Shown here: positions 6,461 through 35,950 of the stretch, one piece after another
Layout: the number at the start of each line of letters is the position of its first letter
Position numbering within the stretch: position 1 is the first letter of the stretch
Assembly: GCA_973895155.1 (NCBI GenBank)
Contig: OZ316892.1
Coordinates: 4,610,510-4,674,509 of the forward strand
Length of the DNA: 64,000 bases
Origin: Marsupella aquatica
Lineage: Eukaryota; Plantae; Marchantiophyta
Direction: 5' to 3'
Notes under the pieces: generated by a model
Told to the model about the DNA's origin: nothing
The model's input: only the letters and a program-made list of their open reading frames with translations
Databases searched by the model: none
Made by a program: the position numbers and the translations under genes

Positions 6461-6648
6461 TGATGCGTGGCTGCGCGTGAAACCCTAAAAATGACTGCAA
6501 CGTCACATTTTAACCAATCCAACTTGACGGGACCAAGAGACATGCTCACGCGAATAATAATAATAGAGAAATAAATCTTTGAGATCCTTTATATTTGATA
6601 ACCAGTATATAAGGAGTTTACAAATGGTTTCTAGAACGACAATACAAA

Positions 6649-7378
6649 TTAATCTGATCTCATGCCGACTATTATTTTGGAAGCGTCCAAAATTGGGCGT
6701 CTGTTAAATTGCTCTACTAGATATCTATCTCCATGCCTCTGAATCACAGGGTCTTCCCATAGAGTATGATTATAATCATAATCTCTAAAAATAGATTTAA
6801 CTGACCAATCTGGATAATCTCTTCCATTGGCAATGACAAGCGGCTCACAAGAGTTTGCTAGCTTGCTAAGATACGGAATCAGCAAGTTAATCAGGAAACT
6901 GTCGTCGACCGACCCAAAATATTTGGGCGGAAATAATGATCCAACAACAGGATCTAAACAAGCATGAAATGCATCGGATTCGATAAGCATTATATTTTGC
7001 TGCAGATACGCCTTCATATAAATTTCAACCTTCTCAAAACACTTCAAAAATATCCGCTTATTTGATGTCACCCCATCGCATAAGTAACAATGAGACTGAT
7101 CCCAAATATACTTAAATGAGGCCATTTCCATCGTAGTAAAATAGATGCTAAAATCTGATCTAAAAGGTTCTTCCCAAGAGAGGACCAGATCCCTACATCG
7201 AAATTCTCAAAACAGAATCTCAAGAATTCGTGAAGATGAGGCCTTGGAAAAATGTATATATTCCCAATCCGAATTCCAGTTGAGACCGCCATCAGTCGGG
7301 AATGCGGTGCAATGTAACAGAGTAGATGCTCCACGTCTAAAACTACGAGCCCGTTTTCTCTGCTGCAATGAATCTCCT
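6649..7378 (-). pseudogene. NIF/FCP1-like HAD phosphatase domain, copy 3 (frameshifted)
   Basis: LVVLDVEHLL...PRPHLHEFLRFCFENFDVGIWSS, then a frameshift into FKYIWDQSHC...NIMLIE. Acceptor ctctacag at ~7379. Confidence 0.75.
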
Positions 7379-7462
7379 GTAGAGAAACACAAGAAGATGC
7401 ATGAGCCCGTATGGATGTAGTCACGCGAATGGTCGCGTCACATATTACAGAGAAAACATCCT

Positions 7463-8170
7463 CTACACTCTGGCCATTGATAAGTGACGTCTGTTGAAGT
7501 GCTTGATAAGAACTTGATCCGCATGTCTTTGCACGTACAGATGCTCCCATATATCCTCGTTCAGATCCCAATCTCGATGTATATTTCTAATCGACCAGAT
7601 GGGATAATCGAACTTGTTAGCGAACGCAAGACAAAGCCCTAAATTTGATAGCTTTCGTAAATATGGAATGAGGTCATCCCTCAAAAAGACATCATCCAAC
7701 GATCCTTGAAACGACTTAGCGAACAATAATCCGCATACAGCTGTCTAGCATGTATGGGAAGGACAGGCATCAATCTGGATTATATTCTCTGGTCGATAAT
7801 CTTGAAACATATCACGTAGTCTCTCGATAGATTTGAAGACAATAGTCTTATAATTTTTCTTCACATAACCAAGATTCCAGCAATGATCCCGCGTGAACAC
7901 ATATATCAGCTGCGACAGGTCGGTGCTCGACAACACTTCTGAAAGTATTTGATAAACCAGTTTATCGTCAAGAATAGACCAGACCATCACATCAAAATGA
8001 TCATAACAGAATTTTATAAGATCATGAAGATGCGGCCTCGGAACGACACATAGAGATCCGATACGAATTCCAGGTGCCGACTTGAGCTGAGGAGTATATT
8101 TTGAAACAGAGCATAGGAAGTTTTCCAGTCCTAAAACTAGAAGTTGACGCGACCTGCTCCACTTAGACAC
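7463..8170 (-). pseudogene. NIF/FCP1-like HAD phosphatase domain, copy 2 (one in-frame stop at 7745-7747)
   Basis: LLVLGLENFL...PRPHLHDLIKFCYDHFDVMVWS...ENIIQIDACP. ORF 7463-7726 continues in the same frame. Acceptor tttacag at 8171. Confidence 0.75.
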
Positions 8171-8295
8171 CTGTAAATGAACAATTCGATTCTCATATTA
8201 TGCAATTGCAAACAACCACGTGACCGGGCGCGTCACTCCCAAAAGTTCAATTTCAATCAATTTATAAATAATAATTGATAATAAACAATAAACGT

Positions 8296-9066
8296 TTACT
8301 TATTGGACTTATCCCGGGCTTCTATAGCACGGTCTTTTTCGGCAAATAAGTATTTCATAAATTCGTCAAACTTTTCTAAATGGTCTTTATTCCCCTGATT
8401 ACGAATGATCACGTTTCTCCTCCAAAGATTCGTCTTATCAATATAATCTTTCTCAAGATTTTCTTGAGAGAACGTTGGAATCCCATATCCACTAAGGAGC
8501 TCGCGGAATGTCAACTTGTCAATTGACATGTCGCATAGATATGGATATAGTTTCTTTCTAAAAAATAGGTCATCATCGAGCCCAGAATATGCATCGGGAT
8601 ACAGCGATGAATAGAAGTCATTAAGGCTCGTCTTATATGCAGCGTCATCGATAAGAATGACATTCTCGATGTTGTAATCTTTAATATCAGCGGCAATGTC
8701 CGAGAGATATTTGACAAATAAAGGGATGTCATTATTATTCTTCCCAATAAGTCGAGTTGATTCTTGTCCCCATATAAATTTAATACGTTTCAAAACTTCG
8801 GGTCGAAATATCAGCCTTACACAAGATAGAATATTCTGTTTGAGCATGCACGACCAGATCGCAATGTCGTATAGATCTGCCACCTTCTCAAGAAATTCCA
8901 TTAAATCAGGCCTTGGATAGATAACCTTGTGCATCTGTCTCACACCCCTTGACCGAATGGGCATCCCAGGGCTGATCTTCTCTGACCAGATAAGTACCCG
9001 ATTCAGATCAAAAATTACAAGTCTCTTCTGAACCGGTGACTTCTTTGCCGATGGATTAGGCGCCAT
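8296..9066 (-). CDS. NIF/FCP1-like HAD phosphatase domain, copy 1
   Basis: KRLVIFDLNRVL...RPDLMEFL...YDIAIWS...FIWGQE...KYLS...ENVILIDDAAYK matches the NIF family motif order. Confidence 0.85.
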   Translation of the reverse strand: MAPNPSAKKSPVQKRLVIFDLNRVLIWSEKISPGMPIRSRGVRQMHKVIYPRPDLMEFLEKVADLYDIAIWSCMLKQNILSCVRLIFRPEVLKRIKFIWGQESTRLIGKNNNDIPLFVKYLSDIAADIKDYNIENVILIDDAAYKTSLNDFYSSLYPDAYSGLDDDLFFRKKLYPYLCDMSIDKLTFRELLSGYGIPTFSQENLEKDYIDKTNLWRRNVIIRNQGNKDHLEKFDEFMKYLFAEKDRAIEARDKSNK

Positions 9067-9230
9067 CTGTACCTGTGATTTTTGTGCCGCAGGGTTTGGA
9101 GAACGTACTAGAACGGTCTATTTGTTTCCCGCCTCCGGACGATCACCGGACTTCCGGACTGGTGCCTTCGATACTCGATCAGGGGGTTTCGGGATAGGCT
9201 TCTGTAAAACATTAAGAAATGAAAATAAGT

Positions 9231-9785
9231 TCATAATGCGAACGGTCCCGTGACTACAAAGAGAGACACTGAAATGAAGTGTATTACCTGTACAAGACAG
9301 TCGTTCAGTGCTGGAATTCCGCCGGAAATGTCAATCATAGCAGCACGGATCCCGGTAACTAGGTTACTTGCGGACGTCGGCTTGCGGAAGTCCACGTCAA
9401 ATAATGACAAGACTATCTCCCTACGGAATTTCTCAATTTGATTCGCGGCAAAATTAATTCCGTTTCCTTGACACAAGCACTTGGCGTATCTCAAGATAAA
9501 CACACCACAACTGTGGCCGTCACTCTGGTGAGGAATATCATTCCGATATATCCGTTCCCAACCTGAGAGATCCAAGTTGACACCAGTTCTCCAGCCAATT
9601 TCATCGGCGTAGTACTTCCCAACAATATCTAGCACCCCAGGATTTTGTCGATTATGAACTAGAGAATCTAGGTACTCCAGCCGTTTCTCCTTCGGATACA
9701 AGACTACCAATGACCAATGTTCTTTCACAGCATTGTGTACTGGAAAGACCAGTTTCTCGTGTGAGTATTGGGTAATACCGAAAAC
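9231..9785 (-). CDS. Ulp1/SENP (peptidase C48) catalytic exon
   Basis: LVFPVHNAVKEHWSLVV...YLDSL...PHQSDGHSCGVFIL has the His-Asp-Cys triad and the oxyanion Gln. Acceptor tttcag at ~9786, donor gtaata at ~9288. Confidence 0.9.
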   Translation of the reverse strand, partial: VFGITQYSHEKLVFPVHNAVKEHWSLVVLYPKEKRLEYLDSLVHNRQNPGVLDIVGKYYADEIGWRTGVNLDLSGWERIYRNDIPHQSDGHSCGVFILRYAKCLCQGNGINFAANQIEKFRREIVLSLFDVDFRKPTSASNLVTGIRAAMIDISGGIPALNDCLVQVIHFISVSLFVVTGPFAL

Positions 9786-9978
9786 CTGAAATTACTGAAA
9801 AATTTAAACTTTTTACAGTATTTAAGCCTGCTATTGCTGTTAAAATGCCAAGTGTAAACTACGGGTATACTTTATAACGGGATTACGCATTTACGCGTAA
9901 GAACATTACAGGTTTACGGGTTTACGGGTTTATGGGTTTACGCTGTTACGAGTTTACGCCAATACGGGATTACGGCTT

Positions 9979-12612
9979 ATGCCTTACGCATTTAAGGAAA
10001 GTTCACGTTACGGCGCTACGGCTAACTTTGCAACGGGACTTAGAAACAGATTGGGGACTTCATACCTTGATAGGAATCAAGCACAGAGTTCAGGCGCTCA
10101 CTCCTGTATTTTCACCACCCCTATTCACTTGCTCTTTCTCTTCGAAAGCAACCTTCGCAGCACGCAAATCACCGTTGCAGCTATGGCGAACCTGGGTGCT
10201 GAGGAACAGTATCAAATTGAAGCTCTAGCAGTCTCAAAAGTAGTGGCAGCTCGTATACCACGAGCGCCTGATAGTCTTTCTAATTTACAAGACTCTTTAC
10301 AGCACTTAGGATTGGAGCGCTTGCTCAGGATCCCCTGGAATGTCGAGCTCGACTCCTACTTGCAGGATTTTGTGAAGGGGACTATCATCCCGATTGAATT
10401 CAGGCAAACGATTCGAGCTCACCCCAGCCTGTGGACTGTTGAGAAAATTGCTTACACCTTTGGATGCCCTTCAGAAGGAGAGGCGTTATATTCCAAGAAG
10501 CAGGACTTATCTGCTCCATACTTCTCAGGAACTCGAAATGCCAAGAATGGTTGGAACTTGTCCCAGTGTACTTATCCTGAATTGAGAGTGCTCATGGAAT
10601 TTCTGGTACCCATTCTTCATCCGAAAAAGCCAACTCTCTGTCCTGTGGCCTTGGCTAACACCATTGTAGCTGCTCATAGTGGAGCTATAAAAGTAAATTG
10701 GGCCCTACTTTTGTTTAATGTAATGAAGGATCAAGTAAGGAGCTTGGAAGCAGGGAGGACCACTTGTTTACAGAATTATCTCTCTCAACTCTATTATACT
10801 CATGACTGTTTATATCTGGAGGAAGAGACAGAGAGGGGGTTACTCCTGATTGACTTGGGTATTGAAGAAGAAATTCATATGGAGGACATTGTACATGTCA
10901 CCCCATTGAATTTGAATGATCAGAACGTTGAGGAGAATGCTGATGTTCCTATGGAGGATACTTCATTAGAAATCCCTACACATTCTCCTATGCATAGCAG
11001 GGAAGTTGTTTGCCAATCAATAAGTAATGAGAATTTCCCTAGCCGAACTATGGATGCAGATGCACTAGAAGCTGAAGAAGTAAGGAGCATTCATCAACAA
11101 GACGATGTTGCTACACCAACTGATGCTACTCCTCATGAGACCGCCAGGTCCACTCCTTCGAAGGCAGAGTCGAATCAGCAGCTTATTGATAAGTTGATAT
11201 CTCTCCTCAGTTGCAGTGATGATGGACTATATGATGCTGTTAATAATTTGAGAATGGAGGCTGTTAGTTTGGGATCACCATTTCATGATCAGCTAAGCCC
11301 TGTCAGAATAACCTCTCCCCCAAGAGAACCAGCACCAATGGAGTTTGTGATCTGTACTCCTGTCACTGTACAGCCCCCTCCCCTAGAAACAAGTGAGCCT
11401 ATTCCAGTAACAGATAGTATCAACTGTGTGGCCACTGTGGATGACTTGTTAGAACTACTACAGTGTGAACCTCGACAGATAGCATCTGTGGTCCGCAACT
11501 TGATCCAACAATGTCCAACTGCTAGTCCCACTCCTAGCCTAGGTTTGCAACCCTACAACCCTGATTCCAACTACGAACCCACAGAAAGACCCACCTACAA
11601 TCGGACACAATATGAACACCCTTACGTCAGAGAGGATATACCTGAAGACTCCGATCCACCCTCAGATGGTGAAACTTATAGATCTTATGATAATTCTCTT
11701 GAGTCATCCCCAAGGCAGGGATTTGAAGATGTTGATACTGCCTTAAGATCCCATCCAAACTTAGTAGCAGTTGTCACCTCATCTACTCAAACACCTCGGA
11801 ATGCCACCATCGAGAGTAGATACCCGAGACATCCAGAGTCCCAAGTGCACAGGTATGTGGAGACCTGTAAGATTATGCAGGCCAACAGACCACCGGTTGG
11901 AGAATTTTGGAAATACTACTATCTCAAGAAGACAGAGGCCAGTTATATCTTCGACCTTAGGTGTTTTGGAACTTCCAGAGTGGAGATGGCACAATTCGAC
12001 GAGTTCTGGACTGACTCTCTCTACTTCCGACCCATTCTTGCTGTAATGCTACTTCAGGGTGATGTAGAAGTGGAGGATCCAGATTTAGCCCTAGCATATT
12101 TTGGAAATTTAGCAGCTTATGCCCTAGATTTTGTGATTTCTTTTCTCATGTAGAGTAAGAAATCTACTTCTCCCCAGAACGCTTACCTTCCTCGAGAGCC
12201 CAAGGTTACCCTTGTTTCAACCAGTTCATTAGCTGAGAAACAGAGAATTTGGAACAATGTCACCTCTCAAACTCTAGCCAACTTCAACCGGTATTTCAGA
12301 GATGTCAAATGGAGGCTTCACCCTTTCTATTCCAGGATGCTGAACTCTGATGAATTTCTATACCATTATCCCCAAGTATATGCTGCTACTTGCAATAATT
12401 ATGACGTGATTGGGATATATAGAGAAGCTCTTCGAATAGACATATGTTATCTAAGGAGAAGAATGCCCCTGATGTATCCTGAAAGGCAATTGAGATGCCT
12501 ACCCTACTCTCGAGGATCCTCACGCCAGGCTGAGCTGATGGAAGTTACTCAAGCTCGGACTGTTACCCTCGTGGAGCTACTCGAACCACACGACATCCGA
12601 CAACAAGCTTGA
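9979..12612 (+). pseudogene. Intronless ~877-codon ORF with one in-frame TAG (12151-12153), nested antisense in the Ulp1 intron; resembles retroelement-associated accessory proteins
   Basis: The 724-aa ORF is in frame with ORF 12337-12612. The N-terminal globular region reads LGLERLLRIPW...NGWNLSQC...EFLVPILHPKKPT...NTIVAA...VNWA. I recall this pattern from bryophyte repeat-associated hypothetical proteins but have not verified it. Confidence 0.55.
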
Positions 12613-13803
12613 GGCAGAATCTAAGTCTTTTTAGTTAAGTTTTAAGAATAGTGCATCTTTCCCTATTTTTCAAAATATGTTCTAGAGCTTTAAAAGCTAT
12701 GAAACTCCTTTAGTACATAATCTATACGTAGAGAAACTCACTGGCAAAATTTCAGAATTTTCCGAGCCAGGAGTAGAAAGTTAAAAATAGTTGAATTCGG
12801 TAAGTCTTTAAGTCTACCGCATTCACCAGATTACGCCTTTACGTTTTTACGCTTTTACGCGATTACGTCTTTACGCTTTTACGCTTTTACGGGTTCTTAC
12901 TTAGCCATTTCTCGGCTTTTCACTTACTGAATCACTGTTTTGACTTTTTGAGGAGTATGAAGAGGCATGTCTCTTCGACTCTATGACCTCTTACCTTGTA
13001 GGATTTTACTATAAGACCCCTCCACCACTAGTCTAGTTTATGGTTAAGTTATGCATTTTTGCCTTTTCCTTGTGTTAAACTAGTTGATCATGAATCTATG
13101 AAGTTCGAGATCAGGTTTAACATTTGGAGAGACTTACCTCCTTCTTGTGTTTTTACCTATGATTATAAACACAGGAAGTAAAATTCCTTTTGTGCAAATC
13201 TTTTGAGTTGTAATGATAGATTCCTTATTGGTGACTCATTACAAGCTCTTGAGTTCTTGAAGTTAACTCATTGAGTTTAAGTCTCATTGAAATTGATGGA
13301 TTTTCTTTCATGTTGCTTAGTACCATCTAAATGTTGAAGTAGCTACCTTTTAGATCTTATCTGAGTACCACTTAGAAAGAAAGGATAAGACATGTTGACG
13401 GCATTTTAAAAGGTACTCTAGTAAACAGTTTAGATCTGAAAAGCAATATGGATTTGAATCCTTAAGTCTTTTCATTTTGACTTATGTCTAAGGAGTAACC
13501 TTGGTCTATTCCAAACTCCCTTAGTGTACTTTGAGATTATTTTCTCTTGTGTTTTGTTAATCATTCCTTTTTCATTAATTTATGGTTACCTGATGCTGAG
13601 TTATCATTGAAAACTACTCACCGCTGTGGAGCGATCTTCAAAATACCTTATTAAAGTAATCAATTCTGATTACTATGTGTTAAAGAGAGTTCTTAAACTC
13701 TCATTTGTGTTTTTATGTATCAAACCAACCCCATCTTGTTCTTTGCGGGAACGAATACCGAGTTTGAAGACCTATAAATGTGTTTTTGGTTCTTCATAGC
13801 AAA

Positions 13804-14134
13804 CTACATCTCGTATTCACTGATTTTTAGTGGAAACTCCTTTGTCCAAGCTGCTCTCTCCTCGTCGAAAATGGTAGGATCCATGGAGAGAAGCTCAAAA
13901 TGGTGTGTTTGGAAGAATTTGACAAGGTCTGACTTTCCAACTCTATCGAGAATCAGTTCGAGAAAACTCAAATAAGCGTTAATTATATCATCGGTGAGCA
14001 ACTCGCGCGGTCTCAGACATATCATATGTTTCCTCTTGATCGAGTGTTGTAAGAACTTGGTCAATAGCTCTTCCATATCCTTAGAAGGATCAAGGCATTG
14101 ATCTATTCGACTAGCCAAATTTTCAAAAAACTGC
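13804..14134 (-). CDS. Ulp1 N-terminal exon
   Basis: CLRPRELLTDDIINAYL...FFQTHHFELL...AAWTK matches the Ulp1 pattern L.P..WL.D.IIN.Y...F.T.F....WTK. Acceptor ttttgcag at 14135. Confidence 0.8.
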
Positions 14135-14264
14135 AAAAAACAGAGATTTCAGAACGCCTTCAAATAACGTACTGAGGTTGTAGCCTAAGGGTTGTAGCCT
14201 CAGAAAATAGAAACAATAACAGATCAATAATAAAATAATGATGTCTATAATAGAAACTTTAAGC

Positions 14265-16049
14265 TTATAGCTTGCGAATGACCTTTGGATTGGGTGGATC
14301 CGGCCTTTTCGCAGCTGATCTCTTGGGTGCCTCAATCGCAACAACATCCTTCAGCCCTCCTCGAGACCGCAGTGATCGCTCCACCGGACCAGTTTGCGAA
14401 GGTTGGAGCGATGAGGCGGGAAGACCTTCAAATGGTTGTGGCATTTGATTCAAATATTCCACAATCTGGGAATCCGATTCCAAAATATCCGGTGCCACAA
14501 TTTCTGCGCGAGTCACCTCTGCAATATATCGGGGTCGAGACCACGAACCCGGTCGCATCAAGTCAGCTGTTAGTCTCTTAACGACTTGAGCCGAGTCTGG
14601 TGCCAAAAACGTTCCCAGGTCTTGCACTCGATTCTCGGAAAAACGCACATTATTGATGATTGTCTCCATTCTGGATGCAGTGGCAGTCTTCTCCTCGGTA
14701 ATCAAAAGACCCTTCCAATATTGCAAAGCAAGGACTGCCTGGACTCGGAGCTGCTCCGGTGAATATTTATTCCAATCATCCAACGAGACCGTACTTAAGG
14801 GTGGATCATTAAATTCAAACTCCGGGCGAAGAAAATAGTCTAATATTTTCTTCTTAACTGCAACTGAGGGTGAAGAAGGCTTCTTCAAATTCAGCCTTAT
14901 TTTTGGTAGACGTTGTGCCTCAGGAATAAGCGAAAGATCCTTGGCCCTCTCGGCCTCCTTCCTTGCTGCCTCCAGTCTTGCGGCTTCTTCTCTCTCCAGT
15001 CTTGCGGAATCCACCTTTTTCGCCTCCAACTTCTCCGCCTCCACCCTCTCCGGTCTTGCGGTCTCGTCCGCCATCCTCTCGGCCATAAGCCTCTCAGCCG
15101 CCTCACTCTCCGCCTTGGCCCTATTTTCCTCTATCACTAAAAGGACTCTCGCAGCCTCCACTTTCTTAGCCTGGGCTTTCTCCGCCTGGGCTTTCTCAGC
15201 CTGGGCTTTCTCAGCCTGGGCTTTCTCCGCCTGGGCTTTCTCCGCATGGGCTTTCTCAGCCTGGGCTTTCTCGGCCTCCGCTTTCTCGGCCTCCGCTTTC
15301 TCAGCCTGGGCTTTCTCGGCCTCCGCTTTCTCAGCCTGGGCTTTCTCGGCATCCGCTTTCTCCGCCTGGGCTTTCTCGGCCTCCGCTTTCTCAGCCTCGG
15401 CTTTCTCCTTCTTCTTCGCAACAGTTGCTTTTCTAGCTGCTGCCTTTTTCTTCTTAACCTCGTTCTTTTGAAGCTGCTCTTGCCGGGCCGCCTCTTGTCG
15501 GGCCGCCTCCTCTTGTCGGGCCGCCTCCTCCTGCCGGGCCGCCTCCTTCTTTTGAAGCTCCTCTTGCCGGGCCGCCTCCTGCCGGGCCTCCTCCAGCCTG
15601 GCCACCTCGTGCCGGGCCTCCTCCTGCCGGGCCTCCTCTTGCCGGGCCTCCTCCTGCCGGGCCGCCTCCTCCTGCCGGGCCTCCTCCTGCCGGGCCGCCT
15701 CCTCTCTGGCCTCCTCCTTCCGGGCCGCCTCCTCTTGGTCCACCTCATGTTGAGGCTCCTGTGTGGCCTCTTCATCAGAGTCCTCAGCGTCCTCGGAACC
15801 CTCCATCTCCTCGTCCTCTTCATCAGCGTATTCAGCGTCCTTCATCTCCTCTCTATCACTCTCTTCATCTCCTCTATTGTCAGAATCTTCGACGTTGTTC
15901 TGCGTATCGGTCATCCACTCTGGATCTTGGTCATTGACATCCCCATCCACGTCACCTTCCGCGTCACCTTCCGCGTCACCTTCCCCCTCACCATCCGCAT
16001 CACCATTGCTCCTTGCATCCTCAACATTGAAGCCGCAGTCGACTTGATC
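14265..16049 (-). CDS. Acidic and charged repeat (coiled-coil/SAH-like) exon of the multidomain gene
   Basis: A D/E-rich stretch, then (RQEEA)n and (AEKAQ)n. It is spliced in frame from the upstream exon (caag|gtaagt ~16166 to ttcag|at ~16050). Confidence 0.75.
   Translation of the reverse strand, partial: DQVDCGFNVEDARSNGDADGEGEGDAEGDAEGDVDGDVNDQDPEWMTDTQNNVEDSDNRGDEESDREEMKDAEYADEEDEEMEGSEDAEDSDEEATQEPQHEVDQEEAARKEEAREEAARQEEARQEEAARQEEARQEEARQEEARHEVARLEEARQEAARQEELQKKEAARQEEAARQEEAARQEAARQEQLQKNEVKKKKAAARKATVAKKKEKAEAEKAEAEKAQAEKADAEKAQAEKAEAEKAQAEKAEAEKAEAEKAQAEKAHAEKAQAEKAQAEKAQAEKAQAEKAQAKKVEAARVLLVIEENRAKAESEAAERLMAERMADETARPERVEAEKLEAKKVDSARLEREEAARLEAARKEAERAKDLSLIPEAQRLPKIRLNLKKPSSPSVAVKKKILDYFLRPEFEFNDPPLSTVSLDDWNKYSPEQLRVQAVLALQYWKGLLITEEKTATASRMETIINNVRFSENRVQDLGTFLAPDSAQVVKRLTADLMRPGSWSRPRYIAEVTRAEIVAPDILESDSQIVEYLNQMPQPFEGLPASSLQPSQTGPVERSLRSRGGLKDVVAIEAPKRSAAKRPDPPNPKVIRKL
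15160..15740. repeat. Coding minisatellites of 15-18 bp
   Basis: Arrays of (gcctgggctttctca)n and (cctcctgccggg..)n. Confidence 0.9.
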
Positions 16050-16166
16050 TGAATAAAATCAGATCATTTGATAAGAATGACTCACGTGTGAAAAGAAATG
16101 TTATGAATGTCCATGCGCATGTTCGCGTGACGCAATAAAAAGTAGGAGGTTTCAAAAGTAACTTAC

Positions 16167-20950: not shown

Positions 20951-21030
20951 TATGCGAGAATTTAAACTACTATCCTATACTACTAAGCTATACTTAGGAG
21001 GAACTTACTAAACAAAGAATCCCCACGACA

Positions 21031-23890: not shown

Positions 23891-24745
23891 GCGCTCAGTA
23901 AATCTATCCAGTTTCCTTCTCACACGCGACTGGTCGCGTCAACTGGTCCTAAAAGGAACCCTTCCTCCTCTAACAGAACCAGTCAATGAGAGAGCTACCT
24001 CAGACGCGACTGGTCGCGTCAACTGATCCTAAACAACTATATCCATTGAACCTTCTGTGGAGATTTGGATATGGTACGCGCTCAGTAAATCTATCCAGTT
24101 TCCTTCTCACACGTGACTGGTCGCGTCAACTGGTCCTAAAAGGAACCCTACCTCCTCTAACAGAACCAGTCAATGAGAGAGCTACTCAGACACGACTGGT
24201 TGCGTCAACTGAACCTAAACAACTATATCCATTGAACCTTCTGTGGAGATTTGGATATGGTACGCGCTTAGTAAATCTATCCAGTTTCCTTCTCACACGT
24301 GACTGGTCGCGTCAACTGGTCCTAAAAGGAACCCTACCTCCTCTAACAGAACCAGTCAATGAGAGAGCTACCTCAGACGCGACTGGTCGTGTCAACTGAA
24401 CCTAAACAACTATATCCACTGAACCTTCCTTGTGGAGATTTGGATATGGTACGCGCTCAGTAAATCTATCCAGTTTCCTTCTCACATGCGACTGGTCGCG
24501 TCAACTGGTCCTAAAAGGAACCTTACCTCCTCTAACAGAACCAGTCAATGAGAGAGCAACCTCAGACGGGACTGGTCGCGTCAACTGAACCTAAACAACT
24601 ATATCCACTGAACCTTCTGTGGAGATTTGGATATGGTACGCGCTCAGTAAATCTATCCAGTTTCCTTCTCACACGCGACTGGTCGCGTCAACTGGTCCTA
24701 AAAGGAACCTCACAGTATTTTCACGCGACTGGTCGCGTCAACAGT
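23891..24745. repeat. ~187-bp tandem repeat, about 4.5 copies, two ACGCGACTGGTCGCGT palindromes per unit
   Basis: gcgctcagtaaatctatcc recurs at 23891, 24078, 24264, 24453 and 24640. Confidence 0.95.
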
Positions 24746-25821
24746 TGAAACAACTTTTGGACAATAGGATAATACAGTGATACAACTGTGATTACTGACC
24801 CGTACAGACAAGGAAATCCGAGGAAGCATAATGATTCATTTGTATTCATTCATGAACTTTACAATAATTCAGATGTTTGAGCTCTGTCATTGTGAAGCTA
24901 TTATATATTAGAAGTTTAGAGAATGATCCAGCTAAGATGATTCAATTTAGCAGTCTACTGGTTGTATTCGTCAATTAAAGAATTCAGTGTAATGAGATTC
25001 ACATAACATGAGAGTTTATATGATTAAATTCACAGCGTGCAAGTTTGTAATGACTTACTTAAGATGATTCAGGTTGTATTTTAATTAGTGAGTTTGTATG
25101 ATTCACACATATTTGAGTTTACAAACAAACCGCATTATGAAAATTGTGCTTAGCAATCAAAGAAATTTTAGCAAACCACAATCAACACCAGCAGAAAATG
25201 TAGAAATTACACCTGAATTCTGAAAAATTGATGTAATCGTCTGAGAGATTGACGTCCAAGCACTTGAACACCTTGCTGCGGCATTCTAGAAAGTAAATAT
25301 AAGATTGAAGATATTAATATGCTAAGCAACAACAACACAGCTTCTATACTTCTATACATAGAGCTTCGCTGCCACCAATTGAATAACATGTGCTTAATGC
25401 TAAGGAGCTCATTATGTCGAGTTAAAAAGACTCTTTCAGAAGTACAATCAAAGCTGTGGATAGGCAAACTGAGCATGAATAAAAGCGCTCTAAACCTGAA
25501 GATTCAAAGAGGTGAAACAAACCTGAATGCTGAATGGAAGGAGCTAAAACAAGCTGCCAAAAAGTAGTTCGAGCTGCTGAAACACGTTGATCGAGCTGAT
25601 ATGAGCTTAAAATTGGCTGACACGAGCTGATACAAGCACTCCCAAAAAGCTAGCTACAACGAACTAGCAAACTAGAAGTGAATACGAGCTGTAAATGCGA
25701 GCTGCAATGCGCCAACGAGCTCCTGGTCGAAACGATGGACAACTACTAAGAGCTGCAATGCGCCGACAAGCACCTGACCACAACGAACGAGCTGCAATGA
25801 CAAAAATGAAATCCAGGGCAG

Positions 25822-25938
25822 GAGCGAGAGCAACGAGAGCGAGAGCGACGAGAGCGAGAGCGACGAGAGCGAGAGCGACGAGAGCGAGAGCGACGAGAGC
25901 GAGAGCGACGAGAGCGAGAGCGAGAGCGACGAGAGCAG
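25822..25938. repeat. 15-bp GA-rich minisatellite
   Basis: (gagagcgagagcgac)n. Confidence 0.9.
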
Positions 25939-27419
25939 GCGTGCAAAAGTCTAGGGAGCAAGAAACAACAACAATGAACAATGAACTCGAGACCGTGGGC
26001 GCCGACACTAAGGAAGGACTAATTAGGGTATTGTTTTAGCATAACCCTAATAACAGCCTAACGACAGGAAGGTTCCAGATGATCTCCGTACACTCCACCA
26101 TCGACTGAACAAACTATGCAATCGTGAAAAAAAGATTACCGGATTCCTTTTGATTTTCCGTACTAAAGGAGATTTCTATTTGATGGCCAATTTGAAATTT
26201 AAACCGGTAATTATGCAACTGCGAAAGATTGTTAGTGGGGACCCCCGGATCCGGATCCGGATCCATATCTTCACTATATCTGCCAATTCAAATCCAAAAT
26301 GTGAACAAACGACAACTTTCTCACGATCGTTCCATCACGTAGTGGAGGCAAACTTCAAAATCATTCCATTTTGGTAGTGGAGACCGTCGGATCCGGATCC
26401 GTACTCCACTCTCTATCTTGCCAATTCAAACCCTTACTCTAAACAATGTAAAACGATTCTCACGGTCGGGGAGGACCGATATTCAAAATCAATCCTGTAC
26501 AATGATTCTCACGACTGGAGACTCAACCAATTTTCAAAATCAAAATCGAGTCCAGATGAACACATCCTCCATGGAGTCAATAGACTGATCTCATTGCTCA
26601 CGGATCATTCTTCATTTTCAGTTTCTCCTTACCAGGATACTAGCTGGGCTCTCAGCGGAGGCTGATCCAAGGCACATTTGAGGTGGAGCAGATTGGATCA
26701 TTCGACTATTCCAGTCGGAGGCGGAGCTCATTCAAGCAATGCTGGCGCAGTTCTTGTTGTATCACCTTCAATCTTGGGGAGAGCACATCCGATCAAGCGG
26801 GAGAGTTGCGACGAAGCGAGACGACAAACATTTAGAACCTCCATAGTCTGCCTCATTCATCGAAGCATTCTAGCGGACCAACAAAGAGCGGCTATTCTGA
26901 AATCACAGTCTGGTCGAGGATTTTGATCTTGATACGATCAACAAGTTGTCATTCTCTGGTGGTGGGATTCGATCATGATACTCAAGGAAATTGGAGTTTG
27001 AAGGAGGAGGCTTAGTTGGCTGGGACGAGGAGGGTACGCTGGAAGGAAGAGGCTTGGCTGGGAGGAGGGTTTCCGCCAACATCGGAGGGTTGCCGCCAAC
27101 ATTGCTGAGACCACACGCAACTGAATAACTTGTAAGTATCAATCAGCATTAATTCCACAATAAATGAGGAGAGTAGTTGCCTTAAATCACGCATTCAATG
27201 CATGAATTGAGTCAATGAAGTTATGGTCCAATTTCTCACTCCGAGTTTGATCAATCCGTGTTTCAAGTCCAATACAGAAGCAATGTATCAGAAGTACTAG
27301 TAGAGGATCCGAATGAATTCTCTAGTCTATAATTGTATGGCGTACGCGTATAGTTGTCCGTACATTTTGCTATTGTTTATTGTAGTCGATGGCCTAGCAA
27401 AACGTAACGTAATCAAGGT

Positions 27420-28320
27420 CCATTTCTCAGATCTTCCTGATCTCAACTTGTTAGTAGGATGACCTGTTTTTTGGTTACACATGCAGTTCATCACGTGCAC
27501 AGTCGCGTGAACCAATTTATCTCGTGTCTTTTGATATTGTTTATTGTAGTCGACAGCCTAGCAAATTGGCCAGAAATCTATTTTAAAACCAACGTCTTCG
27601 TTTCATCACGCGCACGGTCGCATTAATGTTTTAGAGGTCAGCGAAAGTTCTGCACTCTTAGATGTAATCGCCCTTTATTTCAGAGATCTTCCTGATCTCA
27701 ACTTGTTAGTAGGATGACCTGTTTTTTGGTTACACATGTAGTTCGTCACGCGCACAATCGCGTGAACCAATTTATCTCGTGTCTTTTGATAATGTTTATT
27801 GTAGTCGAAAGCCTAGAGAATTGGCCAGAAATCTATTTTGAAACCGAGTTCTGATTCACGCGACCGGTCGCGTTAATGTTTTAGAGGTCAGCGAAAGCTC
27901 TGCACTCTTAGACGTAATCGCCCTTTATTTCTCAGATCTTTCTGATCTCAACTTGTTAGTAGGATGACCTGTTTTTTGGGTTACACATGTAGTTCGTCAC
28001 GCGCACAATCGCGTGAACCAATTTATCTTGATATTGTTTATTGTAGTCGACTACCTAGCGAATTGGCCAGAAATATATTTTAAAACCGAGGTCTTCGTTT
28101 CATCACGCGCCCGGTCGCGTTAATGTTTTAGAGGTCAGCGAAAGCTCTGCACTCTTAGATGTAATCGCCCTTTATTTCTCAGATCTGCCTGATCTCAACT
28201 TGTTAGTAGGATGACCTGTTTTTGGTTACACATGTAGTTCATCACGCGCACAGTCACGTGAACCAATTTATCTCAGGTCTTTTTGATATTGTTTATTGTA
28301 GTCGACAGCCTAGCGAATTG
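27420..28320. repeat. ~250-bp tandem repeat, about 3.5 copies, two palindrome variants per unit
   Basis: agatcttcctgatctcaacttgttagtaggatgacc recurs at ~27430, 27685, 27935 and 28180. Confidence 0.9.
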
Positions 28321-28522
28321 TCAGTCACAGGAATCTCGATTTTTCCTTGATTGCAAAAATGGTTACATCGATCCCGAAGGACTTCGGATGTGGAATCCAT
28401 ATCCACTAGCACTATCCAGGAATTTAAGCTACACAGTATCTATAACAAGTTCTAACTTGAACTACTCTTGAATCTGTAGTTCTAATCTTCGACTACTCAA
28501 AATATTGTTGACTTCGATCGAG

Positions 28523-29065
28523 TCAGTCATTCCAAGATGAAGCCATCCACTCATCGGTGTCTGGTGTGGATTCCCTTGAATCCAGAAATTCTTCCTTTGC
28601 CCAAGTCCTAACGTCCATAGATTTTCTCGGCTTGCTCTTTCTGTAATACAAATTAGAATCTTTGTTCATCTCTAATTGCCTTTTCTTCGGTGCGTCCACT
28701 TTCTTGGCCTCCTTCTTGATTGTCTTAGCGTCTGCTGCTGCTTCCCCCGAAATGGATTCGATGCATGCTCTGGCCTTCAACTTCTCCCCGCTCGAAACGG
28801 ATTCCACGAGGGCTTTGCCCTTTAACTTCTCCCCTGATGCCATCTTTGTAGTCATCTCTGTCGGATTGGTCTCCATCTGATCTTCCATCGACAAATGTGG
28901 CGAACAATGTCGTCTCTCACAAAACATTTGACCCGATTTAGTCACCGTAAACATTATATTACATCGCTGACACATTCTGTAAGGAGTACCACGAATTCGA
29001 TACGTCAAACCTTCTAAATCGTCCGTCGAAACATCCTCATTCTTTGAGCTCAGCGGAGTAGTCAT
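28523..29065 (-). CDS. Hypothetical 180-aa protein with a possible Cys zinc ribbon
   Basis: Uninterrupted ATG-started ORF with CQRC...CERRHC and a basic C-terminus. No family recognised. Confidence 0.45.
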   Translation of the reverse strand: MTTPLSSKNEDVSTDDLEGLTYRIRGTPYRMCQRCNIMFTVTKSGQMFCERRHCSPHLSMEDQMETNPTEMTTKMASGEKLKGKALVESVSSGEKLKARACIESISGEAAADAKTIKKEAKKVDAPKKRQLEMNKDSNLYYRKSKPRKSMDVRTWAKEEFLDSRESTPDTDEWMASSWND

Positions 29066-29542
29066 CGTCCTTCAAACAAGAGATGCTGACCGAGACTAAG
29101 AATTGGAAATGAGAGAGCTGATGTGCGAATAGATTATCCAGTAGCCAGAAAGTGGAATGCGTGGGGGAATGAGCAATAGAGATCATCTCAATGCTTTATA
29201 CTGTTTAGTCTCCACTAGTCATTGTACATAGTGGTTTCTAGAAGAGGGTGCGCGTTTGACTGGTGCGTATTAGAATTGGCGGGAATTTCAGTTGTCCTCT
29301 AATTATGACTGTAATTTCATGTTTGGCGACCGCCCCGGGAATACTGATTGCTAGTGAAGTACTGAGATTTCTTATGAAGGTCAATAGTTACTGACTGTCC
29401 GGTGTCCACTCATTGGTAAACTGGTACTGTCCACTCATTTTTCCTGAGTGGAGTTGAAATGATTGTTCGTAATCGATTGTAGTCCTTCTCATTCACTTGA
29501 AATGACTGACGGACCATGCATTATCTTTATCGGTATGTGTGA

Positions 29543-29995
29543 TGCCTTTAGATCCGTAATTTATCTTCCTGTCTCGCGCGTAATCGTATCTTACTTATGA
29601 AGTACCAATTACGAGCTAGAGTTTGGGCCTAGCCTTCTAGCTTCTACGTCGTAGACCCTGTACCCTCTGACTAAGGTCACGCGACATGCCTTTAGATCCG
29701 TAATTGTATCTTCCTGTCTCACGCGCAATCGTATCTTACTTATGAAGTACCAATTACGAGCTAGAGTTTGGGCCTAGCCTTCTAGCTTCTACGTCGTAGA
29801 CCCTGTACCCTCTGACTAAGGTCACGCGACATGCCTTTAGATCCGTAATTGTATCTTCCTGTCTCACGCGCAATCGTATCTTACTTATGAAGTACCAAGT
29901 ACGAGCTAGAGTTTGGGCCTAGCCTTCTAGCTTCTACGTCGTAGACCCTGTTATCCCTACACCCTCTGACTAAGGTCACGCGACTAGTCGCGTGT
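29543..29995. repeat. ~145-bp tandem repeat, 3 copies
   Basis: tgcctttagatccgtaatt recurs at ~29543, 29687 and 29832. Units end in ggtcacgcgac. Confidence 0.9.
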
Positions 29996-30369
29996 AGGGC
30001 AGTGCATTGACTACATTCTGCCTACTTATTGACGGTTGTGACAAGACAATGCAGTTCACGGATGTTTTACTGGCGCTTATTAGCACTACTGTCCTCAGTA
30101 GTTACTGACTGTCCACTCATTTGTTCTGAGTGGATGTGAAATGATTGATCGTAATCGATTGTGGTCATTCTCATTCATTTGACATGACTGACGGACCATG
30201 CATAGTCTGTTGCCGGTATGTGTGGTACCTCTAGGGTCACGCGACCAGTCGCGTGCAGCGCAGTGCATTGACTACATTCTGCTTATTGACCGACGTGACA
30301 GGACAGTGCAGTGAAATTGACGGACGTGACAGGACTATACGCTTACAGTGATATTCTCTGATGTGCAGG

Positions 30370-33300
30370 ATCATAATTAGTATGGTGACATCGACAGTCT
30401 GGATCAGGGAAGGCGGCCAAGTAATTATAGGCATACATGAGAAACAGGTTGGAAAAGGTCGCGTGATAAGTCTTGATCCTTCCAGGGTTTGTCACAATGT
30501 TCCTCTTGGGGCGGATAAAGTTCTTCTTCTATTGGAGGAAGTTTTTGACGAGACCATTCTATGCAAAGATGGCAAACTTTTGAAGGACATGATTGGGGGT
30601 TACCTTGTATGGGAAAGGAATCAGCTTTTTCGAGCTCCCATGGAATCGGAGGATGTGTTTGGCACTGTTGGTGATGATCAAGATCCAGTCAATCAAAATT
30701 CTGATGGGAACAACCATAATGAGAGTCGGTCTGGTGTGGAAGTAGTTTTACCAAAGGCCTTGTGGATGGGCATGCCTGTAAAGGTGGTGGATGAGAACAA
30801 GTTGATATTTGCAGTGGCAACTATACATGTTCTAGATCCTATAGTCAAGCTTGGGGATGTCACCCTTGGGAATACACATGTGGGAATTCTGATCAACGAT
30901 TTTGTCGAGGGAGCTACCATAGATCATCTGAAGCATAGAGATTGCTTAAAAGCTTGGTCGATGGACCAACTCATTGCCAAGGATGGCAACTTGTTGTCTT
31001 TCCACAACATCAGGCAAGCTGTGGGAGGGAACACATCTCCAACAAGTGGCAAGCGGTCCTACGTCCATAAAAGTAGGAAAAGAAAGAGTCCATCTTCCCA
31101 GACATCTAGAAGAGACACATCTTTGGCACGTCAAGATGTGTTGTTGATAAACACTAAGGACTGTTGTAGTGAACATTGTTGCCAATATTTGGACCACAAC
31201 TTGGCTATGGCAATTAGGCAAAAGTGGTGGTCAAAATCTTTTGCGGAGCGCAAGGAGGAGGAAATCAAGGCTATTAAAAATACAATACACTTGGGTACTG
31301 GAGAAAGGATTCTAGCAGTGGAGGGCAAAGTATTGTGCTTGGAGGCATGGAGAATCATTCATTCAAGAGGAAAGACTCAATTTTATGCCTTGAAGAAGAC
31401 TGTGATGGCTGGAATGAACATAGGTACCCATGGTAATGCTGGAAAAAGGCGTATGTCCGAGAAAGTATCTCAAGCATTCATGTCAATGAAAGAGATTATT
31501 GAGGAGGCAGCTGATCATCATCCAGCCAAGTTGAGAACCATGGCAGATAATACAAGGATGGTTTTGAGGGAATTGCCAACAAATCTTACTTGGGAGAATA
31601 TTAGAAACAGGGTTAATGTTGTCAACCAGGAGGCTGGTCTTCCTCCAATTTCCCAACCCACCTTGAGTCATCTACATCAGATGTATTTCAGGGAGTTCTC
31701 ACGTCACAAAAAGGGCAACAACTTTTCAAAGTGTACAACTTGTAGTGAGTTGCTTCAATGGAAAGCAAACCTTACAGGAGCTAAGGAAGAGTTAGAGGGC
31801 CTAAGGCGTGACGAGGAGGAACATCACCAAGACCACACACAACAAAGAATGTGCTATCATACCTGGAGATATGAGTCCATCCATCGTCCAAAGGAAGTGT
31901 TATGCCTTATTCATGATAAGATGGATCATTCAAAGACAGCTCTCCCAAGAATGCCATTCAATCCTAAGCATGTGGATGGTGCCCAAAAGTTCCCAATTAC
32001 TGTCACTGGTATCCTTACTCATGGTCATGGTCCCAAGGCCATAGCCCAATATCATGTTGGAGTGTCAATTGATTCAATACTAAGGATGTTGGAAAACCCA
32101 AATCCAATGATCAAATCACTTGTGGAGGGGCCAGACTCGACAAGTCTTTTTAAAGACCTCCTTTTTGGGAGAGCAGATATCTTGGAGGCAAGTGTCCTTA
32201 GAGCATTTGAGGATGACATTGCCTACATCTCAAGCCTAGGTACTTTACTCACAATCCTTCAATTTATTATTATTTAATAATATAAGCTCACACACACTGA
32301 CACTCTACTTTGTGTAGTTGTTGCTCCTCCTAGCCAAGGTTTCATTAATAGGGTTTAAACCCTAAACCCTAAATTGGGGTTTAGGGTCTGACTAGGGTTT
32401 TGTTTAAAAGCATTCTGAGATTGTTACATTGTGATGCAGCACCTGAGGCACCAAAGTTCAGGCCCCTTCCACGAGTATTGAAGCTACAACTGGATAATTG
32501 TGCCTCAGACAACAAGAACAGATATATGATGGCTTATTTGTCATTGTTGACGGCAAGGGAGGTGTTTGAAGAGGTTCATCTTGGTTTAATGGTGGTTGGG
32601 CATACTCATGAGGACGTTGACGGTATGTTTGGGCATTTTTCAGAGTCTATGATGCATAACCCCACATACTCATTGCCTGAGTTAATGTCCTTGTTCATGA
32701 GAGCAAGGACACCCAATGTAGTCCCACATTTTCTACAGGAGGTCCCAGATTTCAAAAACTACTTAGCTCCATTCATGTTGAAGGGCCTTGAGGCATTGGT
32801 GGGGCATTTAAAACCCAGGCTGTTTAGGTTCTATGTTCGTCATGATAGTATGCCATGCTTCCAATACAAAATGAAGTCAACTGATCAGGGATGGTTACCC
32901 AAGGAAGGTATTGAAATGTGGTCATGGAAAGATGACAAAAGTCCTCACATCCCAATTGGGGTGCCCAAACGGCTACCAATGATGGAGTTGAAAATGCTTC
33001 CTGAAGTGCTGACAGGGTTGAAGAAGCATGTGTCATTCTTTGAGTTTATTCTAAAGCAAACAAAAGAGGAAGAACCAAGCGACGTTGGACAACTCTCATC
33101 AATTATTGGAATGACATTGTAGATACTCTACAGGGTGAGCAGGTGCAATATGAACCTGAAGGTGCACACAACTTGGAATACGGGTTTTGGCCTTTATCAA
33201 TATGGAGAGAGCACGTTCCACCAGAATATCAAAATGTGGCATGTGAGTTGGAGGCAACAGTGGATTATGTGGGACCAGCAAAAGATAAACCTCCTGAGAG

Positions 33301-33727
33301 TTTTAACCCTAGGGTTGATGTTGTGAAGGGCTGTTATGTGTTGGTACGGGCGGATGACTCAGACCTGGATGTTTATCCCGTCCATATGGGGTTAGTTGTT
33401 ACAGATGTGGTAGAAGGACCAATGAATGAACAAAACCTTCTTACTCATGTATGTGGCGTTGAGTGGTTTAGACCATTTATGGCAAAGAAGCAACGTGGTC
33501 AATCAGACTGGCAGCCAAGAGAGCGGTGGGCAGATTCTTGGGATAAGAAATGGGAACGTGATCCATCTCCAATATACAAGGAAGCTGAGACAATAGATGT
33601 TTCCTCTGCCTTGTGGTGTTTCAAAGCACGCAAAGGACCAATGACAGGGCTGGTAGGAATTCCAAAGAATGTTGCTGTCAAGGCAAGAGACTATCTCTTG
33701 ACATGCATAGCAAGTGACAAATCCTAG
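30370..33727 (+). pseudogene. Sola1-like DDD transposase, spliced, with a frameshift near 33110-33140
   Basis: CC..HCC, LCLEAW, HGNAG, FSKCTTC, IHDKMDHSKTALP, LQLDNCASDNKN and LMVVGHTHEDVDGMFG give three catalytic-type Asp positions. An acceptor gtgcag lies at ~30369, with intron(s) at ~32240-32440. Confidence 0.8.
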
Positions 33728-34299
33728 ACAGTAATGAAGCATGTAGTTTAGCATACAATTTAAAAGGCAACTCAGAATAGTAGTAGCCAGAGAACTCAAG
33801 TTTAGACAAGTCTTATCGTCTACGTTAGTTAGTTGGTTAGTTTATTTAAGATATAATATTAGTTAGTGGGGCCTTAGTTTGGTGATATTAAGGCATGATA
33901 TTATTGACATTCAAATGAATGTCCAGTAGACATTGTAATATACAACAATCCTATTAATTGTTGTAAAGAAACTAATTAATTAAAGGGTGGTACTTACTAT
34001 GATTGTAGGTCACGCACCCTGGTGCGTGTCAATCTTTTTTGTATTCAACCCTATAATAATTAAATAGACAATTGAAACAATGAATGATAGTTTAATTAAG
34101 GATTTGTGCATGGATCAAGAGGTACTTCATGTCATTTAGTGATGCATTGTTATAAAGATCTTGCAACAAAACAGTTGAAGTTTTTGACTATCCCACCAAA
34201 TGTTAAAGAGGTTGATCATTCATTAACTAATAATATTTAGATAAAATTGGAATTAATCTAATACTTCAGTATTCCTTAAATTGGGGTTCCTTGCCAACA

Positions 34300-35950
34300 A
34301 TTAAAAATACCAAGTATAGGGTGCACATCCTTGTATTTATAGTCCCCTCTTAAATGCCTTGGGCCTCATACCAGGTCTCCTCACACTTGGGACTAGCAAT
34401 ATATTATGGCTCCCCCAAACAAATGGGATGTGTACCTAGTAAAACTTTCCTCCCTTCAAAAACCACGTAAGGCTTTTGCTCCCTTGTACTTATAAATGCT
34501 CACCCTACTCTGTACTTGATGGTACAGAATGTACCTGAAACTCTTCACCTTCTCCTCTTAAGTGCCTCTTACCTTCTTGTGTAATACAGCACTCGTACTG
34601 GGATTAGAGTTGTACCTCCCACTCACACCAAACCAAGTCATATTAGTATACGATGATTCACCGTACATATTGTATAGTGCATTCGGCCGCACCGCCGTAA
34701 AAGATTGCGCAGCAACTCCTGAATAACAATTGAGGGAAGCAGAAAATACAACTTCGAGCGAACACTCTCTACAAGGTTTATTGAGAGAAACGGGACCCCA
34801 CAGGCCCCTCAAGGAATACCGATACACAAAATACACCATAGCCACGAGCTTAGAGCTCTAATCAGCAAAAATGCAAATTGATATTGCTCCACACTCGCCA
34901 AATGAAAATATGTGAGACTTTCACCGAGATGTAGTGTCCGCCAATGCGCACAATAAATTGTCAAACTGTCCTCCCGAAAGTACTCGTTGGAAATACTATG
35001 ACACGTCCAATACTTCAACAAAGTTTCAATTGGGAACCGTCACCACTTCCAACCACAAAACGATCAACGCAAAACGGCTAGTGAAATGATCATGCAATCG
35101 TTAATGACGATTCAATCTTCCACCACGATCCAACACCCAAATGCTCTCACCGCTGCCTAGGCCACCGAACCATGAACATGAAGCTCTAATACCACTTGTA
35201 AGAAACCGTCGGCTCCAGACTAGACAACAATGCAAAAACATGAGAGAGACTCAATCAGATGTTACACCAACGAGAGTCCACCCCGAGTAGAGAAACTCCT
35301 GAAAGCTCCATAGCAAATGAGAGTACATGTGAATAATGACTTGGAGAGAGTGCTCTCCCTGGGTATGCAACTCTTGTATAATAAGCAGGGGTCTATATTT
35401 TTATATGGACTAAAAAGTTGGCTATAATTAAGAAAAATTAAAATTTAAAAACCTTGGGTTTTCCACTTTTAAAATGTTTGAAGTCATAGAAAAGGTTTGG
35501 TTTTCTTATTTTTCCACATAAAATTAAAATAATTTCCTAAATTGCTGTATTTTTTATTAAAATATTTTTAGAATTTTAATAAAAATCCCCAAAAGCTGGC
35601 TAGTTTGGTTGTAGACCCCTGTATTAAAAGCCATATAATTTGGTTTTGATTAAATTTTTTCATATCAAAACAAGCTTGAGCAATGTTTTTTTAAAGATAC
35701 ACCTTTGGATTCCTTGAGTTGAGAGGTACAAGATTTGAGTAAACTAAAATGAAACTTCATATGGTCAATGGGATATAAAGTCATTATAAGGAATTATAAA
35801 CTTGCCTTATAAAAAGGGGAGTTGCATACCCGGGGTGCTCTCCCTCCAGCCTATATCCCCCAAGGGGGCCAAGATGAGTGGGCCTAAACTAAGCAGATCT
35901 GATCCTAATGTAAGCCAGGGTTAACTAACCCTAGTAAGGCCAAACTAACT
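34300..35950 (-). mobile_element. LTR retroelement relic (copia-like): 5' LTR ~35197-35950, Met-tRNA PBS and degraded internal region
   Basis: The minus strand reads ...tcttaca-ag-tggtattagagc (canonical tggtatcagagc) at 35183-35194. No intact pol is present. Confidence 0.6.

Follow-up and report, generated by a model that had tools for sequence, protein, structure and literature searches.

The 64,000-nucleotide stretch of the liverwort Marsupella aquatica analysed here (contig OZ316892.1, positions 4,610,510 to 4,674,509; hereafter the window) contains a giant Sola-type DNA transposon, in which a transposase gene on the plus strand is accompanied by a long multidomain cargo gene on the minus strand. 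We propose one 27.9-kb multi-copy, inactivated element whose accessory (cargo) gene serves a VANC-like, ParB-guided self-protection, a reading to which we give an even chance. An anti-silencing role of the cargo, as suggested in the initial annotation of this DNA, appears plausible from the placement of a palindromic motif and from a footprint of retained CpG dinucleotides.

To define the element, all exact inverted pairs of at least 12 bp in the window were collected and an adjacent duplication of at least 4 bp was sought. Such a duplication adjoins two of the 178 pairs found. A perfect 17-bp pair of terminal inverted repeats (TIRs), with CCTT as a 4-bp target site duplication (TSD) on both sides, encloses the two genes (Table 1), and the similarity of the ends continues imperfectly to about 64 bp. 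The single Sola-like element of about 28 kb (about 20 kb without insertions) proposed in the initial annotation is borne out, including the 4-bp TSD expected of Sola and the reduced length, which was measured as 19,508 bp; its ends, placed there at 6461 and 34300, lie at 6381 and 34288. By our estimate about one duplication is expected by chance among 178 pairs, which makes an independent test of the ends by read depth important. Evidence on other copies was taken from short contigs and records of public sequencing runs, with the best-supported rows of the variant and joint tables. Six contigs of run X3 continue beyond 34288 into unlike flanks, and in run X4 the right-flank record shows a depth of 40.6 and no differences, compared to 1100–1450 on the transposase records. 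Comparable flank or depth support for the left end was not found among the records listed. Four of the six public runs listed contain half or more of the sampled element words. Cargo records of run X4 show depths of 660–950 with 1–5 differences per 240–300 nt (diverged records 32–42) and spacer records depths of 585–850, which suggests roughly 20–35 close copies, a rough figure as depth is not a copy number.

It is very improbable that the transposase and the multidomain gene are separate elements, one nested in the other. The CpG contents of the two genes do differ, and a Gypsy remnant (19.5–23.9 kb) masks the original join between cargo and spacer. No single contig or record of the runs spans both genes, so that coverage is the basis for assuming both genes in other copies. 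This coverage is, however, continuous from 24.9 to 34.3 kb, with no major joint or loose end at the transposase start among the best-supported rows; the only TIR and TSD pair within the interval brackets both genes, and one motif family extends from end to end.

The TSD length and the termini AACCC..GGGTT match those of Sola1-1_Ec32 (4 bp, AACCG..CGGTT; accessible part of PMC12477816). The transposase, already described as Sola-like in the initial annotation, matches the Pfam family DUF7869 with an E value of 1.7e-36 and has four homologues with 30–38% identity. The alignment with one of them, P0002, covers the core and reaches into the C-terminal part, and the Asp residues of the motifs HDKMD, QLDNC and HEDVD are all common to both proteins; we take them to be the catalytic DDD residues of Sola. 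The label Sola1 is putative, based on the TSD and terminus match together with these motifs. Pfam gave no MULE (Mutator-like element) match in the proteins of the element, only DUF7869 for the transposase, which speaks against a Mutator-type transposase. Predicted splicing through two GT-AG introns preserves the frame. Within the second intron, AAACCCT units resembling telomere repeats and a word similar to the TIR occur at 32350–32390. The transposase had been described as divergent from the minus-strand chain; the opposite strands hold, and its direct divergent neighbour is a small open reading frame (ORF) of 180 amino acids and not the ParB gene. With a CxxC..C..HC cluster and an internal repeat, this ORF is a candidate for a second accessory or DNA-binding factor.

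In the cargo gene, exons 1 to 4, the Ulp1 exon and the exon of NIF domain 1 (Table 1) could be joined in frame via predicted GT-AG introns, and the first junction is spanned by the alignments of two homologues. The joined frame comprises 2,107 codons with stops at codons 385, 699 and 1835. A frame-preserving chain from 19232 to 14265 had been traced before; the in-frame GT-AG joins stand, with exon 4 splicing at 14283 and with two stops that had gone unmentioned (TAG at 18080–78, TGA at 17039–37). The passage from Ulp1 into NIF copy 1 through one stop (TAG at 9120–18) is found as described. Among the junctions formerly left open, those between exon 4 and the N-terminal part of Ulp1 (at 14283), between the Ulp1 halves and between NIF2 and NIF3 (GT-AG in phase 0, from manual reading) are settled; between NIF1 and NIF2 no phase-0 donor fits, and here the gene may end at NIF1, an acceptor further on may be used, or a base may be missing. 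Separate exons for the two Ulp1 halves were rejected, as a 4,049-bp insert interrupts a single exon here. A 22-nt intron around the stop at 18080 was ruled out, since homologues have Gln there (nine of ten).

Cargo homologues with 38–51% identity stop at the same splice positions, and the cargo gene is hence old in genomes in which it is spliced. All those found are too short to reveal the architecture as a whole; a comparison of the ParB exon with proteins of 673–2000 amino acids gave no match, and the full product would be longer than this range. The proteins P0025 and P0032, which look like chance matches, were left out. A metagenome scan gave two loci, of which L001 is bacterial and its match spurious.

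The copy in the window is dead. It carries four in-frame stops, the three mentioned above and a TAG at 7747–45 in NIF2, as well as frameshifts, a deletion in the transposase and two long terminal repeat (LTR) insertions. Compared to other copies, 30 nt are missing from the transposase at 32063 and its frame is shifted at 33076, and the NIF3 frameshift near 7137 is without counterpart in other copies. The empty form of the insert in the Ulp1 exon was seen in three of four runs. On its plus strand the insert, which has a high copy number in the runs, contains a pair of ORFs of 750 and 152 codons without Pfam match. The Gypsy remnant shows no matching TSD at its flanks. Against the family majority of run X4 the window copy diverges by about 0.8%, and 58 of the 92 differing places are C-to-T or G-to-A. 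Of 80 listed rows 29 were used (flanks, inserts, weak rows and partly other kinds of change were left out); in the 22 such transitions whose sequence context was checked, it is CG in ten cases, CHG in nine and CHH in three, which points to a plant host with CG and CHG methylation.

The fold of the ParB-like domain was addressed by structure prediction (pLDDT 83). The eight best structural matches by VIA belong to the ParB/sulfiredoxin family with Z scores of 8.1 to 5.6, led by PadC (Z 8.1, root-mean-square deviation 3.0, 97 aligned) and KorB (Z 7.8). Foldseek gave a best E value of 2.5e-3 (prob 1.00) and no match at E ≤ 0.001. Model, VIA and Foldseek together agree with the earlier assignment of this domain.

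The methyltransferase-like region of exon 2 gave no methylase match in Pfam, PHROGs, the Protein Data Bank (PDB) or Atlas; an Atlas search with the homologue P0058 reached 0.81 at best, which is chance level. In hhalign, alignment to eight phage methylases yielded an E value of 0.17 (15 of 100 shuffles as high), and 0.045 (1 of 100) after addition of a second methylase gene of the window (58536–61595, see below); the pairwise score corresponds to z 2.4 (26/1000). The alignment is collinear with the beta-class motif order. The motif (D/N/S)PP(Y/F/W) is missing (YFDPSS in the window copy, YLDCS in P0058, FLDST in the homologue P0059), and so is the glycine motif for binding of S-adenosylmethionine: YFGEGT in the window copy and CFSEGK in P0058 lack the Asp and the glycines of DICSGSGT in the second gene. 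We regard the region as a probable dead domain, with a methyltransferase origin likely from collinearity and from the Ectocarpus precedent. The previous description as a degenerate methyltransferase agrees in position and in the degenerate motifs, but the label is not statistically established. An active enzyme that writes N4-methylcytosine (4mC) or N6-methyladenine (6mA) at the palindromes and blocks 5-methylcytosine (5mC), as proposed for the Ectocarpus element, is quite improbable. The gene layout is that of Sola1-1_Ec32 (accessible part of PMC12477816), the alignment to beta-class methylases is collinear, and 4mC on CG is known from a liverwort according to the accessible literature; on the other hand, the databases gave no match, and the first motif is absent from the window copy and both homologues. 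Because of these missing catalytic motifs, an active methylase was rejected as the default reading.

Ulp1 was found by Pfam with an E value of 1e-14, and in the alignment to SENP2 (2.5e-13) the His, Asp, Gln and Cys residues are all matched, in agreement with the intact triad reported before and extended by the oxyanion Gln. The three NIF domains were likewise confirmed by Pfam (1e-11, 3.5e-8 and 2.5e-8 for copies 1–3). DxDx(T/V) is the catalytic motif of FCP1/NIF phosphatases, and none of the copies has it complete (DLNRV, GLENF and DVEHL). The full catalytic set is thus kept only in Ulp1, and the term 'chromatin toolkit' used in the initial annotation is an overstatement.

The 19.5-kb core of the element contains 27 hits to a family of 18-bp palindromes, SACGCG-N6-CGCGTS, with 26 in non-coding sequence, compared to a single hit in the other 44.5 kb of the window (0.54 expected from shuffles). 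At one mismatch or less the palindrome is present in five of the eight cargo introns, a sixth contains it with three mismatches, and neither of the two transposase introns has it. One palindrome lies 80 bp from the left end, and a decayed one 260 bp from the right end. The region 33958–34028 varies among copies, as in all four runs some lack 59 bp holding this right-end palindrome. CG deaminations account for 16 of 20 palindrome mismatches. With the motif bases excluded, the observed/expected ratio (o/e) of CpG drops from 0.87 in the part left of the transposase to 0.27 between the transposase start and the right end. The change point at 30462–30977 lies just beyond the last upstream palindrome. 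At codon junctions the cargo values of 0.77 and 1.10 contrast with 0.26 and 0.23 in the transposase and with 0.10–0.41 in four other coding regions.

In the mechanism we propose, the ParB-fold region with the adjacent helical or dead methylase region would recognise SACGCG-N6-CGCGTS as a dimer, and the bound protein would cover the kilobases between palindromes. ParB CTPase clamps read a parS palindrome through a helix-turn-helix; palindromes are present here, and a single-sequence model of exon 2 reached a pLDDT of 35. The methyltransferase-like domain would no longer write a mark, Ulp1 would strip SUMO off local silencing factors, and the NIF copies could be binding modules or weak phosphatases. 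In an active lineage the accessory protein would shield the motif-bearing part, that is cargo and promoters, from CG methylation by the host; the transposase gene, with no motif in its introns, would be left methylated in the lineage and lose its CpGs. The window copy would have been silenced and have decayed after its insertion. It is possible, if doubtful, that a bacterial ParB/parS-type system was turned by a land-plant Sola into a sequence-specific anti-silencing device independent of VANC, with a protein that is loaded at the palindromes of its own introns and promoter arrays, spreads over about 15 kb and has exchanged the writing of methyl groups for SUMO removal and binding of phospho-proteins, with the fossil CpG footprint mapping the protected domain.

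Several observations weigh against the proposed self-protection. The best VIA score is close to the background of 7–8 stated for the tool, and the ParB-fold family reads GGQHT where canonical ParB CTPases have the GxRR arginine patch in the nucleotide site. The palindrome pattern was derived from the same data, which makes its enrichment partly circular, and most hits stem from three tandem arrays. CpG retention on the left is flat with distance from the motif (0.76–1.02 out to 2 kb), whereas transposase sequence at 100–500 bp from a motif is already down to 0.36–0.47; a captured module would give the same step. The second ParB-methylase gene of the window is CpG-depleted (o/e 0.37). Finally, CG and CHG transitions occur in the cargo and spacer of the window copy as well, which was therefore methylated there and not protected.

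The chief rival, rather unlikely in our view, is such a capture: cargo, spacer and palindromes, acquired as a block from another element or a source with little methylation, would have been fused to a Sola transposase poor in CpG, the step in CpG content being the join, and ParB would serve, for example, autoregulation or the bringing together of the ends. It would account for a step that is sharp and without distance decay on the left. ParB accessory genes are reported to move between transposon superfamilies in red algae (accessible part of bioRxiv 10.1101/2025.02.11.637652), and the depth of the transposase records is about 1.5 times that of the cargo records, which implies some transposase copies without near-identical cargo. 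Capture fits less well with a CpG-rich left TIR arm and with palindromes close to both ends, the splice positions shared by the cargo homologues mark the gene as old in spliced genomes, and the motifs within its introns imply a long co-evolution.

Alternatively, the palindromes might be read by the transposase or a host transcription factor that keeps the region open, with the multidomain gene as a passenger and the SUMO protease as its sole active part. We consider this unlikely. Motifs do occur close to the two termini and also ahead of the transposase gene, only Ulp1 retains its catalytic residues, and a 2026 preprint reports, in its accessible part, transposases able to activate cognate copies. 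Against a reader of this kind, motifs are distributed one per intron across the cargo gene and are absent from the transposase introns, and ParB genes with inverted-repeat arrays are also reported for Plavaka, which has an unrelated transposase (accessible part of bioRxiv 10.1101/2025.02.11.637652).

Table 1. Features of the Sola-type element and its insertions in the window, with supporting evidence.
Feature	Position	Strand	Remarks and basis
Left TSD CCTT, 4 bp	6377..6380		inverted-pair scan
Whole Sola-type DNA transposon	6381..34288		27,908 bp; 19,508 bp without two retro-insertions; TIR and TSD, depth
Left TIR, 17 bp perfect	6381..6397	+	starts AACCC, imperfect to ~64 bp; inverted-pair scan
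Palindrome family SACGCG-N6-CGCGTS	6462..34028		26 non-coding sites including five cargo introns, both subterminal regions
NIF domain 3	6649..7376	-	Pfam; frameshift near 7137
NIF domain 2	7469..8170	-	first Asp lost; Pfam; TAG at 7747-45
NIF/FCP1-like domain 1	8299..9201	-	exon joined as 9201-8300; DLNRV for DxDx(T/V); Pfam; TAG at 9120-18
Ulp1 exon, C-terminal half	9288..9754	-	His-Asp-(Gln)-Cys; Pfam, SENP2 alignment
High-copy TG..CA insert, solo-LTR-like	9760..13808	-	4,049 bp, 5-bp TSD; runs, splice tracing
Ulp1 exon, N-terminal half	13809..14130	-	splice tracing, runs
Cargo exon 4	14283..16048	-	acidic stretch and charged repeats of 15-bp unit; repeat scan, splice tracing
Cargo exon 3	16167..16488	-	splice tracing
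Cargo exon 2	16590..17894	-	helical region; beta-class methyltransferase-like domain, probably dead; alignments
Cargo exon 1	17994..19232	-	basic N-terminus, unknown domain, ParB/sulfiredoxin-fold domain; homologues, fold model
Intron upstream of start codon	19233..19311	-	one palindrome inside; motif scan
Deleted Gypsy remnant	19545..23890	-	truncated 5' LTR, reverse transcriptase-RNase H-integrase, 3' LTR 21030-19545; Pfam, repeats
187-bp tandem array	23891..24742		10 palindromes; repeat and motif scan
255-bp tandem array	27422..28320		7 palindromes; repeat and motif scan
180-aa ORF	28523..29065	-	Cys/His cluster, no Pfam match, CpG-retaining; ORF list, Pfam
145-bp repeats upstream of transposase	29542..30258		two perfect palindromes; repeat and motif scan
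Sola-type transposase gene	30361..33727	+	introns 32240-32317 and 32339-32439; DUF7869; CpG-depleted
Right TIR	34272..34288	-	inverted-pair scan; 6 contigs with differing flanks and depth fall after 34288
Right TSD CCTT, 4 bp	34289..34292		inverted-pair scan

Apart from the arrays in Table 1, the spacer of the element contains a 15-bp RATRA-coding repeat (25695–26036). The second ParB-like and beta-class methylase gene at 58536–61595 (minus strand) has intact-looking ADIPY and DICSGSGT motifs, a Pfam match to N6_N4_Mtase (E 1.1e-7) and matches to phage methylases; its frame holds one stop and seems to be broken. Compared with the cargo module it gives a whole-module pairwise z of 0.5, and a profile alignment of the ParB part an E value of 2.6e-5. 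Another DNA transposon extends from 36969 to 46716 with a 16-bp perfect TIR and the 6-bp TSD TCTAAG and is strongly CpG-depleted. It carries transposase-like ORFs at 37578–41646 (minus strand) without Pfam match and a PHD-finger ORF at 42908–43414; its motifs are presumably P-element-like. A 149/162-bp array at 47214–48034 lies beside further ORFs at 46639–52040, which may be part of another element with cargo.

The closest known system is Sola1-1_Ec32 of Ectocarpus, a giant Sola1 element of 21.5 kb whose ParB-methylase gene runs opposite to the transposase, with the proposal that its product binds and modifies the element (PMC12477816, accessible part). Judged by the published description, both elements share giant size, the 4-bp TSD, similar termini and an accessory gene opposite the transposase, which there encodes ParB-like and amino-methylase domains. 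The accessory gene comprises 1,104 amino acids there and more than 2,100 codons here, with Ulp1 and three NIF domains in addition; the methylase-like part lacks its catalytic motifs here, the TIR measures 282 bp there and 17–64 bp here, and the present host shows CG and CHG decay. The core design, in which a giant Sola1 carries a ParB-methylase gene on the strand opposite the transposase, is hence already published for algae, and the statement in the initial annotation that no description of the combination was known applies only to its extension by Ulp1 and NIF. The reported algal design is probably extended here to a land plant.

A ParB-like accessory protein next to inverted-repeat tandem arrays, proposed to bind its own element, is also described for Plavaka PAG3 of Bostrychia (bioRxiv 10.1101/2025.02.11.637652, accessible part), and the arrangement of gene and arrays is similar here. 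There, in contrast, the transposase is of the EnSpm/Plavaka type, ParB is fused to a 2-oxoglutarate oxygenase and the methylase is a separate gene; its main text, as far as accessible, contains no Ulp1 or phosphatase. A weaker lead are the fungal Starships. An Atlas feature match of the ParB-like part (P0005–P0035) to clusters of DUF3723 scored 0.95–0.96, a lead only, with neither alignment nor E value. DUF3723 proteins are conserved cargo of these giant elements, which are tyrosine-recombinase elements, and the accessible part of the paper does not mention ParB (bioRxiv 10.1101/2021.12.13.472469). The accessible parts of PMC4738411, PMC5751038, PMC6431247, PMC8885841 and further preprints held no closer match. 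Within the literature covered, to which most subscription papers, Repbase reports and bioRxiv supplements do not belong, neither an Ulp1/NIF fusion on a ParB transposon gene nor a CpG footprint was found. Apparently new are this fusion, the CpG retention over the motif-bearing part, and an 18-bp palindrome placed both in introns of the cargo gene and in the spacer arrays.

In function, the proposed system would resemble VANDAL/VANC and KAONASHI of Arabidopsis. According to the accessible parts of the sources, the motifs bound by VANC lie in introns and tandem arrays and its CG effect is local (PMC5735166), and short motifs occur in introns, intergenic and terminal regions and are tandemly amplified (PMC5735166, PMC13317346). 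An element-specific motif in introns and tandem arrays is likewise found here, and CpG retention serves as a proxy for a loss of DNA methylation induced by the protein. Some VANC genes include Ulp1, the Ulp1 cargo of MULEs being reviewed in PMC13317346, and have repeat-rich, variable protein regions. VANDAL differs by its Mutator transposase, a non-palindromic 9-bp motif and, in the accessible text, the lack of a reported ParB fold in VANC; its function was shown experimentally, whereas ours is deduced. According to a 2025 preprint, no transposon other than VANDAL is known to bind its own sequence and modify it (bioRxiv 10.1101/2025.02.11.637652, accessible part); for the ParB-type accessory genes of algae, such a role has been proposed and not demonstrated functionally. 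The CpG step aligned with the motifs makes this proposal testable by methylome methods and one binding assay. If it holds, the element would represent a second, independently evolved self-protection system and possibly a sequence-specific epigenome tool.

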